The notes beneath the pieces were generated by a model that did no database searches, was not told where the DNA came from, and saw only the letters and a list, made by a program, of their open reading frames with translations. The position numbers were made by a program, and so were the translations under genes. Below, piece by piece: positions 18,985-25,212 of a DNA stretch of 40,893 bases (position 1 is the first letter of the stretch; every line of letters starts with the position of its first letter). Location: the sequence record PZ513996.1; one strand, written 5' to 3'. This DNA comes from a phage.

Positions 18985-19506
18985 ATGAAGAAGGCAGCTA
19001 GCGACTACGGTATAGCTTGGGAAGATTACTTCCAATATGAGGACGGGCAGTTACTGTGGAAGGTAGCTGCTGCTCGACGGATAAAAGTTGGCACTGAAGC
19101 AGGTACGCCCAGCGGTTCTGAGGGTAGGTTATCTGTAGCACTGAAGGGTACCAATTGGTATGTTCACAGGATTGTATGGGAACTGCATAACGGCGCTATT
19201 CCTTTTAACCTAGAAGTAGCTCATGTGGACAGGGATGTTCTTAATAACAGAATTGAAAATCTTAGGTTAGTCACATGTGCAGAGAACCAGCGGAACAGAA
19301 GTATTCAGCGTAATAATAAATCTGGAATTGCAGGTGTAACCTGGGTGTCTAGGCTATGCAAGTGGCAGGTGTATATAAATGTAGAAGGGTCTCGTAAGCA
19401 CTTGGGGGTCTATCCGGAGCTATTAGAGGCAGTAGCCTGTCGTATGGCTGCATTAAGGGAATATGACTACTGCCTAAGTCACTGGAGATTAAAGTATGCT
19501 GATTAA
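18985..19506 (+). CDS. HNH homing endonuclease with AP2-like DNA-binding domain
   Basis: 173 aa; VHRIVWELHNG...AHVDRDVLNNRIENLRLVTCAENQRN HNH motif, then GVTWVSRLCKWQVYI AP2-like segment. Confidence 0.7.
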   Translation: MKKAASDYGIAWEDYFQYEDGQLLWKVAAARRIKVGTEAGTPSGSEGRLSVALKGTNWYVHRIVWELHNGAIPFNLEVAHVDRDVLNNRIENLRLVTCAENQRNRSIQRNNKSGIAGVTWVSRLCKWQVYINVEGSRKHLGVYPELLEAVACRMAALREYDYCLSHWRLKYAD

Positions 19507-20682: not shown

Positions 20683-21669
20683 ATGCCACGCATTAACGCT
20701 ATTAAGCTGTTCACTAAAGAGCAACACCAAGAGATTCTCAGCAAGTACAAATCCAACGCTGAGGCAGCGGCAGCTTATAACAAGGCATCTGGTCTGAGCG
20801 AGCCAGTAGCTTACCGTCAACTGGTTAAATACTGGCGCAGAATTTATGAGGCAGCTAATGGCAGTAAAGCAAAAGCTAACAAGGGTTTGGTTGAAGCTCG
20901 TAAACTCATCCAGCCTTCCCCGACCGATGATATAGGAACTACTGACGTACCTGAGATGTGCCATCGCATCCTTGTGGTCGGAGACTTGCACGCTCCTTAT
21001 ACTCATCCTGACGCTCTTGACTTCCTTAGCAGCGTCCGGGATAGCTATGCTCCTGACATGGTAGTGCAGGTAGGTGATGAGACAGATGGGCACGCTATCA
21101 GCTTCCACAACTCTGACCCTGACCTAGACAGCGCAGGGGTTGAGCTGGAGAAAGCTAAGATGGTACTGGAGAAGGTGCATGCACTATTCCCTAACCTACT
21201 GGTATGTGACTCTAACCACGGCTCACTTATCTATCGCAGAGCCAAGGCGCATGGCCTTCCGGTACAGTTCATCAAGAAGTACCGCGACATACTGTTCCCT
21301 GAGCATGGTGCTAAGAAGTGGTCTTGGTCAGATGCGTGGGTACTGAATACTCCGCTAGGCCCGGTTCGTTTTCAACACCAAGTAGCCGGTGACTTGCTGA
21401 TTAATGCTGCTCATGAGCGGATGTCTATGGTAATAGGTCACTTCCATGGAGCCTTCGATGTAACTTATAAAGCAAGTTCAACATCGCTGTACTTCGGGGC
21501 GCATGCCGGCTGCTTAATTGACCATAAGGCAATGGCATTTGCTTACGGGAAGCTAAGCCGTAACAAACCGATTCTGGGAATTTTAACAATAACTGAAGGC
21601 TGTCCAAGCCTAGTACCTATGCTTCTAGATGATGAGGGTCGTTGGATTGGAAGAAACAAACGTACTTAA
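20683..21669 (+). CDS. calcineurin-like metallophosphoesterase
   Basis: 328 aa; VVGDLHAPY, GDETDGH, DSNHG, GHFHG phosphoesterase motifs in canonical order. Confidence 0.7.
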   Translation: MPRINAIKLFTKEQHQEILSKYKSNAEAAAAYNKASGLSEPVAYRQLVKYWRRIYEAANGSKAKANKGLVEARKLIQPSPTDDIGTTDVPEMCHRILVVGDLHAPYTHPDALDFLSSVRDSYAPDMVVQVGDETDGHAISFHNSDPDLDSAGVELEKAKMVLEKVHALFPNLLVCDSNHGSLIYRRAKAHGLPVQFIKKYRDILFPEHGAKKWSWSDAWVLNTPLGPVRFQHQVAGDLLINAAHERMSMVIGHFHGAFDVTYKASSTSLYFGAHAGCLIDHKAMAFAYGKLSRNKPILGILTITEGCPSLVPMLLDDEGRWIGRNKRT

Positions 21670-22251
21670 ATGAACTATCAAGAAATCTGCGAAAAGTATA
21701 AGTTAGGAAGACTGCACAGCGTTGACCTGCGCCGCGCTAACCTGCGCGACGCTGACCTGCGCGACGCTGACCTGAGCAGTGCTAACCTGCGCGACGTTGA
21801 CCTGCGCGGCGCTAACCTGCGCTACGCTAACCTGCGCGGCGCTGACCTGACCGGCACTGACCTGCGCGGCGCTGACCTGAGCGGCGCTGACCTGCGCGAC
21901 GTTGACCTGCGCGGCGCTGACCTGCGCGGCGCTGACCTGACCGGCACTGACCTGCGCGACGCTGACCTGCGCGAAGCTGACCTGCGCAGCGCTAACCTGC
22001 GCCGCGCTGACCTGCGCGGCGCCAAGACTGTCATTATATACGGAGAAACGTACTTCATTAGTATCTGTAATGACATAGTGCGTGTAGGATGTCAGCAGCA
22101 TACGGCAGCAGAGTGGCGCAGCTTCAGTAAGCGCCAGGTTGCGGAAATGGACGGTAAGAGTTCGCTGAAGTATTATCCACGCTTACTAGACCTGATTGAC
22201 TTTTACTGCGGTAAGGGTGAGCGTCCTGATTGGGTTAATGTAAGCGAATAA
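21670..22251 (+). CDS. pentapeptide-repeat protein with C-terminal globular domain
   Basis: 193 aa; ~20 consecutive A(D/N)L(R/S/T)x pentapeptides ([20 protein letters not shown]...), then a 70-aa non-repeat C-terminus. Confidence 0.85.
21715..22021 (+). repeat. coding tandem repeat array, 15-nt period (gctgacctgcgcggc-like), pentapeptide-repeat gene 1
   Basis: near-identical 15-mers at nucleotide level; generates spurious long ORFs on the opposite strand. Confidence 0.9.
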
Positions 22252-22440
22252 ATGAAAGTTCGCATTCTTAACTACAGTGCATATGGTGTAGGCGAGATGT
22301 TCGAGTACATGGATAGATTCCCGGTAGGCAGTGTTCACGAAGTATATGAGTTCTTCCCTGACACAGGAGAGGTTGATTTAGGAGATGAAGATGAGGAGTT
22401 TACTTTTGCACCCTCTGAGTATGAAGTTGTGGAGAAGTAG
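22252..22440 (+). CDS. hypothetical small acidic protein
   Basis: 62 aa; C-terminal DLGDEDEEFTFAPSEYEVVEK. Confidence 0.3.
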   Translation: MKVRILNYSAYGVGEMFEYMDRFPVGSVHEVYEFFPDTGEVDLGDEDEEFTFAPSEYEVVEK

Positions 22441-22558
22441 GTGCACGGGAGGAACCGCTCAAGCTCGTACTATCTACCCAGAGCTTTCAGGAGGGCACCG
22501 GGATTAAAGTCCCCGGTGACTATCAATCCGCTTTGCTATCTGCATCTCGTCTTGATGA

Positions 22559-22607
22559 AATGAATGACCTTGCACATTATTTTATTGGGATGGAACAAGA
22601 TGGCTAA
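22559..22607 (+). repeat. 49-nt duplicate of 24849..24897 (aatgaatgaccttgcacattattttattgggatggaacaagatggctaa)
   Basis: read directly; duplicates the 3' end of the exonuclease-domain ORF across the start of the polymerase-domain ORF. Confidence 0.85.
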
Positions 22608-23751
22608 GTTAGCTTCAGACTTCTTCAAAACATACAAAGAAATGACTACACGCCAGAAGGACCTCGGCTTCTATGAAGTACGTGAGACTAATAAGGATGG
22701 CAGTCTGCGTAAGGTGACGGGCATGCTGCCGTACGTCATCCCTACATCAGCAGATGGTTCTGGCATCATTCACCACAGGTCGAATCACTGCTCAACTACT
22801 ACCGGACGCCTGTCAACATCTAACCCGAACATGCAGCAGCTGCCGCGTGAGTCTAAGGTTAAGCAGATTCTGCGTAGCCGCTATGGTGAGCAGGGTATGA
22901 TTGCACAGTGTGACTACTCAGCTATGGAGGTTGTAATGGGCTGTGTAATCACTGGTGATAAGAAATTACTGAGCTTGCTTGAAGCCGGTACGGATATGCA
23001 CTGCTATCGTCTAGCATTCCAAGAAGGTATGCCTTATGAAGAAGTCTACGAGCTTTGCCATAACCTGGATGCACCGGACCATAAAGGATGGAAGAAGAAG
23101 CGAACAGCCATCAAAACCTTCAGCTTCGCAGCACAATATGGAGCATCCGCTAAAGGACTGGCGTTCGCCTCAGGTGCTAGCTTAGCCGACGCTGAGAAGT
23201 TCTTAGCTAACGAGGAGGCACTATTCCCTGAGTCTATTAAGTACAGGGATGTCATTGCAGCTGAAGTAAACCGTACTGCGCTGCTGGAGCCTATACGCCG
23301 TGAACAAGCAGATGACGGCAGCTGGCGTATCTATCGCGAGGGCTACTTCACTACGCCTTGCGGTACTCGCTACCGCTTCCGTCAGAAGCCGGTGTGGCGC
23401 GAAGGTAAGCAGGTAATGGACTTTAAGCCCACAGAGATGGCTAACTATCCGTTTCAAGGATCAGGTTCCCTGCTTATGCTTATTGCAACCGGAATGGCTA
23501 TGAGGGCTGGTATAGCTGACAATTGGATGGGGGGTAAATGGTGTTTGCTGGTTACCGTCCATGACTGTTTGTACATAGATTGTGCTGACGAAGAGACGGC
23601 CCGTAAGGCGGGTAAGCTCATCAAAAACGTTATGGAAGGAGCCCGTGATAGGATGCTACAGCTGTGGCCTAACTTTGGCATACTGTCTGAAGTTAAGTTT
23701 CCCGCTGAATGTGAGATTGGTAAGTCCTTTAAAGGGGAGATGGTAATTTAA
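22564..23751 (+). CDS. DNA polymerase, family A, polymerase (palm/fingers) domain ORF
   Basis: 395 aa; GRLSTSNPNMQQLP, DYSAMEV (motif A), KRTAIKTFSFAAQYG (motif B), VHD (motif C). Confidence 0.8.
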   Translation: MTLHIILLGWNKMAKLASDFFKTYKEMTTRQKDLGFYEVRETNKDGSLRKVTGMLPYVIPTSADGSGIIHHRSNHCSTTTGRLSTSNPNMQQLPRESKVKQILRSRYGEQGMIAQCDYSAMEVVMGCVITGDKKLLSLLEAGTDMHCYRLAFQEGMPYEEVYELCHNLDAPDHKGWKKKRTAIKTFSFAAQYGASAKGLAFASGASLADAEKFLANEEALFPESIKYRDVIAAEVNRTALLEPIRREQADDGSWRIYREGYFTTPCGTRYRFRQKPVWREGKQVMDFKPTEMANYPFQGSGSLLMLIATGMAMRAGIADNWMGGKWCLLVTVHDCLYIDCADEETARKAGKLIKNVMEGARDRMLQLWPNFGILSEVKFPAECEIGKSFKGEMVI

Positions 23752-24897
23752 ATGAGTAGCATTCTAATTTGGGATATTGAAACTCAAAATCATCCGTACT
23801 ACGGCGGGGTCGCAACTCCGTACTGCCCTGATAACTACATCGTAGAATCAGGCTTCCGCATCGATAGGACTATGCCGGATGGGACTGTACAGTGCAGCGA
23901 GGTGCAGAGTGTACGCTATGAATCCCGAACTGATTTCTTAGCAGCTGACCCTAAGCAGTGGCTACCTATTCAGGATGATACGTGGTTAATCGTAGCGCAC
24001 AACGCAGCGTACGAGATTAGCTGGGCGCTGACCTTTGCCCGTGAGCAGTTCGAGTCGTTCCTTAGACGAGGAGGTCGAGTCTTTGATACTATGCAGGGCG
24101 AGTACATTGCCAGCGACTTCCAGAATCTTTACCCGTCACTAGATGAGACTGCCCCTAAGTATGGCGGGTCACACAAAGTCGACGGCGTTAAGCTACTATG
24201 GCAGCAAGGGGTTCTGACAGCAGACATTGACCCTATGCTACTACATGAATACTTAACAGGGCCTAACGGTGACATAGTCAACACAGCGCTGTGCTTCTAC
24301 GGGCAATGCGCAGTATTTGCGGAACGTGGACAGATGCCTATGGTCTGGGAAAGGATGGAGGCAGTCGCAGCTCTGGCATACTGTGAGTTCAATGGCGTGT
24401 ACGTTGATATGCCTACAGCCAGAGCTAATCAGAAGGAGCAGGAGGACGCTATTCGGAATCTGCGGGAGTTACTTCAGACATTCTTGCCAGAATTGCCAGA
24501 GGGCTTCGAGTTTAAATGGAATAGCGGTTATCATATGTCCGCTTTAGTGTATGGCGGCACGGTTAAGTACAAGTGCAAGGTTCCTTATGACCCACCTAAA
24601 TACATTAAGAAGGAAGTACAGGACGGGGTGTATAAGTCTGGGCGTAATAAGGGTATGCCTAAGTTCATAAAAGTAGACACTGACGAGCAAGCTATGAAGT
24701 GGGGTGAACGCCTGTACCGCTTCGACGGGCTGGTTAATATTCAGGACCTACCTCAGTCTCTACGTGAGAAGTACGGAGACCGCGGTGAATACAAAGGTGC
24801 TCAAACATTAGCGGATGGTAGCCCTGTGTACAGCACAGGAATGGACGCAATGAATGACCTTGCACATTATTTTATTGGGATGGAACAAGATGGCTAA
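23752..24897 (+). CDS. DNA polymerase, family A, 3'-5' exonuclease domain ORF
   Basis: 381 aa; IWDIET (Exo I DxE) and AHNAAYE (Exo II-like); 3' end shares 49 nt with the region upstream of and overlapping the polymerase-domain ORF start. Confidence 0.75.
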   Translation: MSSILIWDIETQNHPYYGGVATPYCPDNYIVESGFRIDRTMPDGTVQCSEVQSVRYESRTDFLAADPKQWLPIQDDTWLIVAHNAAYEISWALTFAREQFESFLRRGGRVFDTMQGEYIASDFQNLYPSLDETAPKYGGSHKVDGVKLLWQQGVLTADIDPMLLHEYLTGPNGDIVNTALCFYGQCAVFAERGQMPMVWERMEAVAALAYCEFNGVYVDMPTARANQKEQEDAIRNLRELLQTFLPELPEGFEFKWNSGYHMSALVYGGTVKYKCKVPYDPPKYIKKEVQDGVYKSGRNKGMPKFIKVDTDEQAMKWGERLYRFDGLVNIQDLPQSLREKYGDRGEYKGAQTLADGSPVYSTGMDAMNDLAHYFIGMEQDG

Positions 24898-24914
24898 ATG
24901 CTAAAGCAAAGTGA
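24898..24914 (+). repeat. 17-nt duplicate (atgctaaagcaaagtga) of 25196..25212
   Basis: read directly. Confidence 0.85.
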
Positions 24915-25050: not shown

Positions 25051-25212
25051 ATGACATTACATGAAGCAGCTTTAAAATTAATAGAGTTGGAGCAGGGGGA
25101 TTCAGGAATGTTCGAACTGGATGAGGATACTATTGTTGAGTTAGTCGAGTGCCTTAAATCCCATCTAGCTGGCCTTAAAGGTGAGGTGAATAACAATGCT
25201 AAAGCAAAGTGA
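25051..25212 (+). CDS. hypothetical small acidic protein
   Basis: 53 aa ORF. Confidence 0.25.
   Translation: MTLHEAALKLIELEQGDSGMFELDEDTIVELVECLKSHLAGLKGEVNNNAKAK

Follow-up and report, generated by a model that had tools for sequence, protein, structure and literature searches.

A family A DNA polymerase encoded as two adjacent, overlapping genes in a phage identical to Escherichia phage vB_EcoP_P64441, recovered from a window of concatenated open reading frames

The whole stretch of phage DNA that was analysed (hereafter the window; 40,893 nt) holds a family A DNA polymerase as two ORFs, one carrying the exonuclease domain (exo part) and the other the polymerase domain (pol part). Both have already been annotated in the GenBank record of Escherichia phage vB_EcoP_P64441 (PQ847473.1), as two adjacent CDSs named 'DNA-directed DNA polymerase' that overlap by 8 nt. 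The features of the locus, in window coordinates, are as follows.

22441..22563, + strand: unrelated 40-codon ORF piece, not part of the polymerase
22559..22563, + strand: AATGA, the last 5 nt of that preceding unrelated piece, a chance match to the native sequence upstream of the overlap
22564..22607, + strand: first written copy of the 44 nt that are natively common to both called ORFs (PQ847473.1 22764..22807)
22564..22599, + strand: additional 5' stretch of the pol ORF, opened by an in-frame ATG specific to this phage (MTLHIILLGWNK); very unlikely to be translated with the pol protein
22600..23751, + strand: C-terminal (polymerase) part, 383 aa, from the conserved start ATGGCTAAG; natively the second gene (PQ847473.1 22771..21620)
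23752..24897, + strand: N-terminal (exonuclease) part, 381 aa; natively the first gene (PQ847473.1 23909..22764, minus strand)
24854..24897, + strand: the same 44 nt written a second time, here closing the exo part at its 3' end as they do natively
24890..24897, + strand: ATGGCTAA, the 8 nt in which the exo stop codon and the pol start codon natively overlap, also written at 22600–22607

It was found that the window consists of 59 start-to-stop ORFs tiled exactly, with no spacer, no overlap and no intergenic bases, and that 57 of the 59 are exact substrings of PQ847473.1. Each ORF had been turned to the plus strand with the blocks mostly kept in record order, so that local gene order is reversed in the window. 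All natural gene overlaps of the source genome (18 of 18, 1–44 nt) are written twice, and 2,054 nt in 33 intergenic gaps of the source genome are absent. The window is thus not contiguous DNA but a string of ORF calls, joined end to end, whose source phage is identical to vB_EcoP_P64441. Because it is built of concatenated gene calls, whatever rests on the order of genes in it, on short direct repeats at the ends of genes or on absent regulatory DNA reflects its construction rather than biology.

At face value the exo ORF follows the pol ORF and shares its reading frame, and an exact 49-nt direct repeat, far beyond chance, is present at 22559–22607 and 24849–24897. Both the repeat and the order of the two ORFs result from the concatenation of ORF calls with duplicated overlaps and reversed order. 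The meaningful part of the repeat is 44 nt (22564–22607 = 24854–24897), which is extended to 49 nt by the chance match of AATGA at 22559–22563. The 40-codon piece that supplies these five bases is the only one that the source record has on its other strand (21457..21579); natively it falls within the 272 nt of intergenic DNA that follow the pol part, and it is unannotated in GenBank and gave no Pfam match. The original prediction described a duplicated 49-nt sequence with the two ORFs offset by +1 across it. The repeat itself is exact, but its duplication is not biological, being the 44-nt overlap written twice plus five chance bases. Likewise, the offset is true inside the repeat and in the native arrangement, where the pol part is read one base further right than the exo part, but the frames of the two ORFs as they stand in the window are identical.

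In the N-terminal part a DEDD 3'–5' exonuclease domain leads into helices and a long beta-hairpin, and the ORF (23752–24897) ends, as had been predicted, in the 10-residue tail HYFIGMEQDG and a stop codon, here TAA. Pfam, NCBIfam and PDB sequence searches with this part gave no useful match, and it was therefore identified by its colinearity with intact orthologues and by its fold. Tblastn and alignment show its colinearity with the N-terminal half of intact polymerases, and it corresponds to positions 669–912 of the PHROG profile phrog_17. The model of the 381-aa chain (mean pLDDT 84) matches the DEDD 3'–5' exonucleases RNase T and TREX2 (Foldseek probability 1.00, ~230 columns), and residues D8, E10, N84, E88 and D174 are invariant in 18 relatives. 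Fold and invariant residues bear out the exonuclease label that the ORF had initially been given.

The pol part (GenBank CDS XXQ42863.1) matches Pfam PF00476 with E=7.7e-30 and 104.5 bits (cutoff 34.3), aligns to Taq residues 556–818 and corresponds to positions 931–1234 of phrog_17, in agreement with the earlier assignment of a polymerase domain to ORF 22564–23751. The TGRLS motif and motifs A (DYSAME), B (RTAIKTFSFAAQYG) and C (VHDC) were all found; in motif C the catalytic Asp is kept and the following Glu of HDE is replaced, by C here and by A in the intact orthologue of KKP 3828. The profile match, motifs A, B and C and the DEDD exonuclease domain of the N-terminal part identify the enzyme as a family A DNA polymerase. 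The genome annotation lists no further DNA polymerase.

In PQ847473.1 the native order is exo part (381 aa) followed by pol part (383 aa) in the +1 frame, joined by the 8-nt start/stop overlap ATGGCTAA. The same ATGNNTAA geometry is seen at two further gene pairs of this genome (ATGCATAA and ATGCGTAA), in PAS7 (ATGAGTAA) and in ECO104 4-5-2 (ATGAGTAA and ATGACTAA). The junction carries ~31 nt more than intact orthologues, and these supply the tail, the stop and the start. Anti-Shine–Dalgarno pairing at the pol start has an energy of −6.4 kcal/mol, ranking 23 of 52 genes and equal to that of the exo part, so the ribosome-binding site is typical for this genome. GenBank places the pol start at the position equal to window 22600. 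This conserved start lies inside the repeat, as had been predicted, but the ATG at 22564 from which the pol ORF begins in the ORF listing is peculiar to this phage: the codon is AAA in PAS7 and ECO104 4-5-2, and a TGA stands directly upstream of it in the pol frame in all three lineages. Translation of 22564..22599 as part of the pol protein appears very unlikely on this comparison.

To place the break, the junction was located by alignment to intact polymerases, as the original prediction had proposed, and it falls at an internal site that reads DAMNGLA-AQGFEF, with no insertion, in intact orthologues (e.g. in the KKP 3828 alignment). A model of an intact orthologue matches KlenTaq, the Bst large fragment and T7 gp5. 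In this model helices 273–280 and 285–302 are linked at the junction (280|281) by a turn of 4 residues, with pLDDT of about 73–85, and the break is accordingly modelled in a short, surface-type turn between two helices. Assignment of this turn to the thumb-to-palm region draws on the secondary structure of the model and general knowledge of the family A fold, as the HMMER alignments to Taq, Klenow and T7 start 20–50 residues downstream of the junction and do not align the break at residue level.

The split is conserved among relatives. For the N-terminal part, all 54 clusters (90 % identity clustering; 68–99 % identity) end 10 residues after ...LA, with the tail consensus [HND]YF[IM][GER][MIV]E... 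For the C-terminal part, 7 clusters at 90 % identity (107 member sequences of 383–384 aa) begin at the same Met, and the conserved start M[A/T/S][K/N][L/K/R]AS.FF is common to these clusters, PAS7 and ECO104 4-5-2. The split geometry of PAS7 (83 % aa identity) is identical to that of the phage studied here. Sequence comparison therefore shows that the split is real and conserved.

Other relatives show other states at this one site. Most of the ~1,000 related phage records gave a single tblastn match across the junction and are taken as intact. Two relatives (L008 and P0134) carry a free-standing HNH_3 gene between the halves at the same residue position, with no intron signal at that junction; because the HNH gene intervenes with no such signal, their enzyme must work as two chains. 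In ECO104 4-5-2 the parts are separated by a 66-codon ORF, and the pol part, with an AAGGAA motif ahead of it, nevertheless begins MTKLASDFF. This ORF had no PHROG family match and no similarity to the HNH genes tested, leaving its interpretation as an endonuclease remnant unsupported. Lastly, one metagenomic contig (P0023) is fused in frame and yet retains the insertion. The comparative series at this single site thus runs through intact, endonuclease-occupied, short-insertion, extra-small-ORF and re-fused forms. A group I intron or intein at the break was also considered and rejected: an Rfam search of the native locus (L001) gave no match at E<=0.1 in the same run that found introns in two relatives, and the insertion is only ~31 nt.

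Of the alternatives to two separately translated genes, the one that survives best, itself improbable, is a programmed +1 frameshift or hop at or near the exo stop that would give a polymerase of ~87 kDa, alone or beside the separate chains. Every split lineage has its pol part in the +1 frame with respect to the exo part, and a ribosome that slipped by +1 at GGC-TAA-G, passing over the T of TAA, would read ...MEQDG-KLASDFF in frame; the PAS7 junction and both ECO104 junctions likewise permit in-frame fusion, and the naturally fused contig indicates that a single chain with the linker can exist. The arrangement also resembles prfB-type programmed +1 frameshifting in having the downstream ORF in the +1 frame and a stop codon at the junction. 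It differs from that type in its strong stop, its conserved independent start codon and the absence of a conserved slippery codon. No stop codon is more efficient than TAA. The sense codon that immediately precedes it varies (GGC, GAG or GAC, with tails ending in G, E or D), and none of these re-pairs well in +1. Every lineage keeps the in-frame ATG that stands 5 nt ahead of the stop, something that a mechanism producing only the fusion would not need, and the 8-nt overlap is a generic junction type of this genome. In L008 a whole HNH gene intervenes. Frameshifting would be improbable, not impossible, in ECO104 4-5-2, because two successive +1 events would be needed across the 66-codon ORF, both junctions of which keep the +1 geometry. 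The T-rich run to which the original prediction drew attention encodes the Tyr-Phe-Ile of the conserved tail in the exo frame, in split and fused forms alike, and has no special role. Alignment returns independent proteins, the second with a conserved native start (in the 7 clusters, PAS7 and ECO104 4-5-2), the outcome that the original prediction had set as its refutation. Among the three explanations originally offered, this disfavours programmed frameshifting and argues for the genuinely split polymerase, for which the conserved break, the shared pol Met and the HNH gene between the halves in one related lineage also speak.

A decaying pseudogene, with another polymerase serving the phage, is still less probable. 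The gene is interrupted and motif C reads HDC in place of the canonical HDE, both of which speak for decay, but intact orthologues of the clade also lack this Glu (HDA in KKP 3828), so that its loss is a trait of the clade rather than a sign of decay. Both halves are conserved (68–99 % identity, many clusters), D8/E10 and motifs A and B are invariant or retained, neither half contains a further stop or frameshift, and the annotation offers no other DNA polymerase that could take over.

A sequencing or assembly indel in an unbroken gene, for example in the TTTT run, has a negligible probability; the presence of the T-rich stretch in the overlap is all that suggests it, and it is excluded by the comparative data, since 54 clusters (90 % identity), drawn from many independent assemblies, all have the same stop and tail length, the isolates PAS7 and ECO104 4-5-2 share the break with differing junction nucleotides, and the junction differs from intact orthologues by ~31 nt rather than 1 nt. 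Equally remote is a truly rearranged locus with pol before exo between 49-nt direct repeats (e.g. by tandem duplication and deletions), which is exactly what the window displays at face value and which was rejected on the ORF tiling result, as the whole window is built alike (59 abutting ORFs, no intergenic DNA, all native overlaps duplicated), both polymerase pieces occur unchanged in a genome with exo then pol, and exo precedes pol in all other phage loci examined.

We consider it highly probable that the two layers hold jointly, i.e. that the window is a concatenation of ORFs and that natively the family A polymerase is encoded by two adjacent genes and made as separately translated chains. 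The artefact, the native arrangement, the conserved split and start and the alternative states of the site are shown by the sequence data; we infer separate translation, assembly of the two chains and origin. The exo and pol parts would be made as separate polypeptides of about 43–44 kDa, the pol part initiating at its own conserved ATG overlapping the exo stop (ATGGCTAA). Translation of the two genes is probably coupled, because this ATG overlaps the exo stop and has a genome-typical ribosome-binding site. The two chains would then assemble non-covalently into one enzyme; the conserved start, the ordinary ribosome-binding site and the surface-type turn at the break lend indirect support to separate production and assembly into an active polymerase.

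The split most likely arose by insertion of a mobile element at the site, because a related lineage keeps an HNH homing-endonuclease gene there. As to the order of events, the endonuclease may have come first or may have invaded an already split gene. In the genome studied here no HNH or other homing-endonuclease gene lies between the pieces, which overlap by 8 nt. Neither the tail nor the 66-codon ORF matches a known family, which counts against a firm assignment of a mobile-element origin. It is conceivable, though we think it rather unlikely, that the endonuclease-free split is a fixed and selected state, in which the ~31-nt insertion would destroy the HNH target and so confer immunity to re-invasion, and the tail (xYFIGxExxx) would dock the two chains. 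If true, the junction would represent a naturally optimised split site inside the family A polymerase domain. Literature searches returned no specific description of a split polymerase in Slopekvirinae or phiKMV-like phages, and the polymerase is not mentioned in the PAS7 paper. The present case would extend the list of phage replication enzymes known to function in pieces by one from family A, and the single-site series could guide split-polymerase engineering or the study of homing endonucleases that fragment essential genes.

The closest parallel is gene 43 of Aeromonas phages 25 and 44RR, in which a replicative polymerase is cut into adjacent cistrons and is continuous in relatives (PMC2988022). 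There, a seg homing-endonuclease gene occupies the break in one phage and a short untranslated insertion, not an endonuclease gene, splits the same gene in the other, phage 44RR (PMC2988022). Correspondingly, an HNH gene is found at the site in L008-type relatives and only ~31 nt in P64441 and PAS7. For phage 25, the split proteins 43A and 43B co-purify, with polymerase activity (PMC2988022). The Aeromonas enzymes are of family B rather than family A, belong to T4-like myoviruses rather than phiKMV-like podoviruses and involve a different endonuclease family. In addition, the 44RR insertion is an untranslated spacer, whereas the one described here is a translated tail with overlapping stop and start. 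The ribonucleotide reductase of phage Aeh1 (nrdA split by mobE) is likewise encoded by an essential gene that is split there and continuous in relatives, and the enzyme stays functional through assembly of its pieces (Friedrich et al. 2007, cited in PMC2988022 and PMC8849078); in Aeh1 the endonuclease gene still lies between the pieces, whereas nothing lies between them in the present genome.

Among family A enzymes, LUZ24-like Pseudomonas phages also have separate exonuclease and polymerase genes, annotated 'DNA polymerase part I / part II' (PMC3890496). These are cut at the exonuclease/polymerase domain boundary (171 aa and 546 aa) and have ~2 kb of other genes between them (PMC3890496), whereas the cut described here lies ~200 residues further in, past the exonuclease domain, and 8 nt are common to both genes. 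Polymerase genes interrupted by group I introns, as in cyanophage Pf-WMP3 (PMC3428280), are comparable in that HNH-encoding introns occur in the same gene of relatives, at 3047–3733 in L004 (Rfam RF00028, 51 bits) and at 1706–2330 in L010 (38.8 bits). Unlike the studied junction, which has no intron signal, these introns are located at the SNP|NMQQLP motif and at motif B and are removed from the RNA. The best reading is that the P64441 polymerase is a two-chain family A enzyme, of a known kind of fragmented phage gene.

The polymerase locus of the window contained two abutting reading frames, preceded by a short third piece:

22441-22563 (PQ847473.1 21457..21579), plus strand, the sole piece that sits on the opposite strand of the source record: 40-codon piece
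22564-23751, plus strand: polymerase-domain ORF, 395 codons as listed; Pfam PF00476, E=7.7e-30
23752-24897, plus strand: exonuclease-domain ORF, 381 codons; C-terminus ...HYFIGMEQDG-TAA

The polymerase-domain ORF, aligned over Taq residues 556-818, precedes the exonuclease-domain ORF, an order that does not fit a single enzyme, and the ORFs around the locus all abut with a spacer of 0. Its motif C (VHDC, window 23566-23574) follows the HD[C/S/A] form of the clade, intact orthologs included, rather than the canonical HDE. As originally predicted, the exonuclease-domain ORF ends HYFIGMEQDG-stop and an exact 49-nt direct repeat is present (22559-22607 = 24849-24897), but this duplication is an artefact of pasted gene calls.

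In-frame reading from the first base divides the 40,893 nt of the window into exactly 59 ORFs without gaps or overlaps, each starting with ATG, GTG or TTG and closing at a stop. The polymerase region was 99.9% identical to Escherichia phage vB_EcoP_P64441 (PQ847473.1, Slopekvirinae) but matched it in seven separate pieces, and the whole window mapped as a chain of blocks, each individually reverse-complemented. Exact substrings of PQ847473.1 accounted for 57/59 ORFs (56 on the minus strand and one on the plus strand). Gaps between native genes (33, totalling 2,054 nt) were absent, and each of the 18 overlaps between native genes (1-44 nt) was written twice, opening one piece and closing the following one. 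The longest is the polymerase repeat of 44 nt (22564-22607 = 24854-24897); the other 5 nt of the 49 (AATGA) are the end of the unrelated 40-codon piece and match by chance. The duplication and gene order of the window are, with practical certainty, artefacts of concatenated gene calls, the local order being reversed because it is the minus strand of the record that carries the source genes, while pieces near the locus were kept in record order. Since the window holds no intergenic DNA, it lacks the promoters and terminators found between genes, and any RNA genes located there.

The same artefact explains further short direct repeats at piece ends, such as 24897-24914 / 25195-25212 and two pairs of ATGNNTAA (16855/17246 and 30310/30743). 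Piece order is not strictly that of the record (window 1-3213, 31753 and 38380-40893): the window opens with PQ847473.1 31562-33648, continues with 42957->1385 up to 31538 and closes with 33658-42958. Both pieces that lack an exact match cross the record origin, where ~125 nt are repeated at both record ends.

The native arrangement was taken from PQ847473.1, in which helicase, HNH and two small genes are followed by the exonuclease (exo) part, the polymerase (pol) part and a 272-nt intergenic region:

23909..22764, minus strand: exo part, annotated 'DNA-directed DNA polymerase'
22771..21620, minus strand: pol part, annotated 'DNA-directed DNA polymerase'

There is an 8-nt overlap (ATGGCTAA) between the annotated pol start (ATGGCTAAG) and the exo stop, with the pol frame at +1 relative to the exo frame, as had been noticed within the 49-nt repeat. 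The window pol piece begins 36 nt earlier, at an ATG unique to this phage; the split-polymerase relatives PAS7 and ECO104 4-5-2 have AAA there, and in all three phages a TGA shuts the pol frame just upstream of this position. Two further gene pairs of the same genome share a ATGNNTAA start/stop junction, such overlaps being a normal junction type there. Predicted anti-Shine-Dalgarno pairing for the pol part was -6.4 kcal/mol (rank 23 of 52 genes), the same as for the exo part.

The 40-codon piece is probably a spurious gene call within the 272-nt region that follows the pol part. Other features of this region are a sigma-70-like promoter close to consensus (TTGACA-N17-TAGAAT) and a hairpin rich in GC (CACCGGGG...CCCGGTG); ~52 nt of the region are found again at record 28781-28832 with 85% identity. 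Two pentapeptide-repeat paralogues (window 21670-22251 and 28015-28551) show strict 15-nt tandem periodicity over 18-20 repeats and are ~85% identical to one another across roughly 300 nt.

The split was found to be conserved. PAS7 (83% amino acid identity) carries the same gene pair with overlap ATGAGTAA. With the N-terminal part as query, 54 clusters at 90% identity were recovered, 68-99% identical to it, and in all 54 the tail extended exactly 10 residues past the conserved ...DAM..LA, with the pattern [H/N/D]YF[I/M][G/E/R][M/I/V]E... The pol-part search returned seven clusters (107 member sequences, 383-384 aa), all beginning M[A/T/S][K/N][L/K/R]AS.FF.

Five states were observed at this single site among the relatives. 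In the first, the polymerase is intact, a single tblastn piece covering the junction in most of ~1,000 related phage records. Alignment to an intact polymerase, as suggested with the original prediction, placed the break after DAMNGLA: Salmonella phage KKP 3828 continues directly as DAMNGLA-AQGFEFAKLVNEL, so the split forms hold ~31 extra nt. In the second, an endonuclease gene occupies the site: in contig L008, DAMKGIA at the end of the N-terminal part is extended by a 9-residue read-through tail (a type shared by cluster P0134), followed by a 153-aa HNH_3 gene and a pol part starting at a GTG (SLAQFFNSVVEL) that overlaps the HNH gene end; Rfam found no intron at this site. The third, a short insertion with overlapping stop and start, is that of this phage, PAS7 and the 54 clusters. 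In the fourth, ECO104 4-5-2 has an extra ORF of unassigned function, without a PHROG match, whose two junctions are ATGAGTAA and ATGACTAA and which is flanked by the near-identical 9-mers ATGAGTAAG and ATGACTAAG; its pol part begins MTKLASDFF after an AAGGAA motif. In the fifth, protein P0023 (contig L010) is fused, reading ...DAMKELADYFISMGKDDHASGFFKAYNEL in one frame and retaining the insertion, 4 nt shorter than in PAS7. PHROGs has separate families for fragments of the polymerase (phrog_9556 and phrog_2573).

Programmed +1 frameshifting, one of three explanations originally offered, would join the two parts at the exo stop, and the junction geometry permits it, as omitting the T of TAA reads on as KLASDFF. 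However, the pol part keeps a conserved start codon, the exo stop is TAA, the codon preceding this stop is not constant (GGC, GAG or GAC), the ECO104 layout would require two shifts in succession and that of L008 is unbridgeable. The T-rich run, originally singled out, encodes Tyr-Phe-Ile in the exo frame of split and fused forms alike. We therefore consider frameshifting very improbable. Sequencing error, including the proposed homopolymer indel, is excluded by conservation of the split in PAS7 and in 54 N-terminal and seven pol-part clusters, the 54 sharing break and tail length.

The native feature is very probably a genuinely split, separately translated polymerase, the remaining original explanation, which agrees with the tail and pol start conserved across clusters. 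The conserved start, ribosome-binding pairing and genome-typical start/stop overlap argue for separate but coupled translation, in which the pol part would be translated from its own start and the two chains would assemble into one enzyme.

Structure models were consistent with two-chain assembly. The N-terminal-part model (mean pLDDT 84) showed a DEDD exonuclease fold, then helices and a long beta-hairpin, with the final helix (364-378) continuing into the tail. The intact-ortholog model, P0010 (mean pLDDT 72), matched KlenTaq, Bst large fragment and T7 gp5, and its junction (280|281) was a 4-residue turn between helix 273-280 and long helix 285-302 (local pLDDT ~73-85). We take this turn to sit before the long helix leading from thumb to palm in the family A fold; none of the residue-level alignments to solved structures extended to the junction.

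Elsewhere in the relatives' polymerase genes, bigger HNH-containing insertions were identified by Rfam as group I introns; no intron signal was found by Rfam at the split junction. Some database 'polymerase fragments' are therefore exons rather than separate proteins. In Klebsiella phages the same gene is interrupted at several further positions (the last three entries below). The insertions and breaks were:

L004 (ECO104 4-5-2) 2636-2836: 66-codon ORF MMSKFQDIEY..., inserted exactly at the polymerase junction
L004 3047-3733: group I intron at the SNP|NMQQLP motif; RF00028, 51 bits (gathering score 50)
L010 1706-2330: group I intron at motif B; RF00028, 38.8 bits; downstream exon without a start codon
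L006 2375-2845: HNH gene insertion at ~residue 300 of the polymerase
L007 1262-2110: 849-nt insert at ~residue 138
580-aa clusters P0037-P0078: common break at ~residue 580

In this phage group the polymerase gene is an insertion hotspot. Within the replication module, an HNH endonuclease gene (window 18985-19506) showed 36% identity over 145 residues to the break-site HNH of L008.

Both polymerase coding sequences were already annotated, and the arrangement is mechanistically unsurprising; neither where the gene is broken nor the series of states found at that one site seems to have been reported previously. In LUZ24-like phages, a family A polymerase is cut at a domain boundary into 'part I' and 'part II', ~2 kb apart (PMC3890496). 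The closest precedent is the split gene 43 polymerase (family B) of Aeromonas phages, in which a seg endonuclease gene lies at the break in phage 25 and a short insertion only at the break in the same gene of phage 44RR, and the phage 25 proteins co-purify and are active (PMC2988022).
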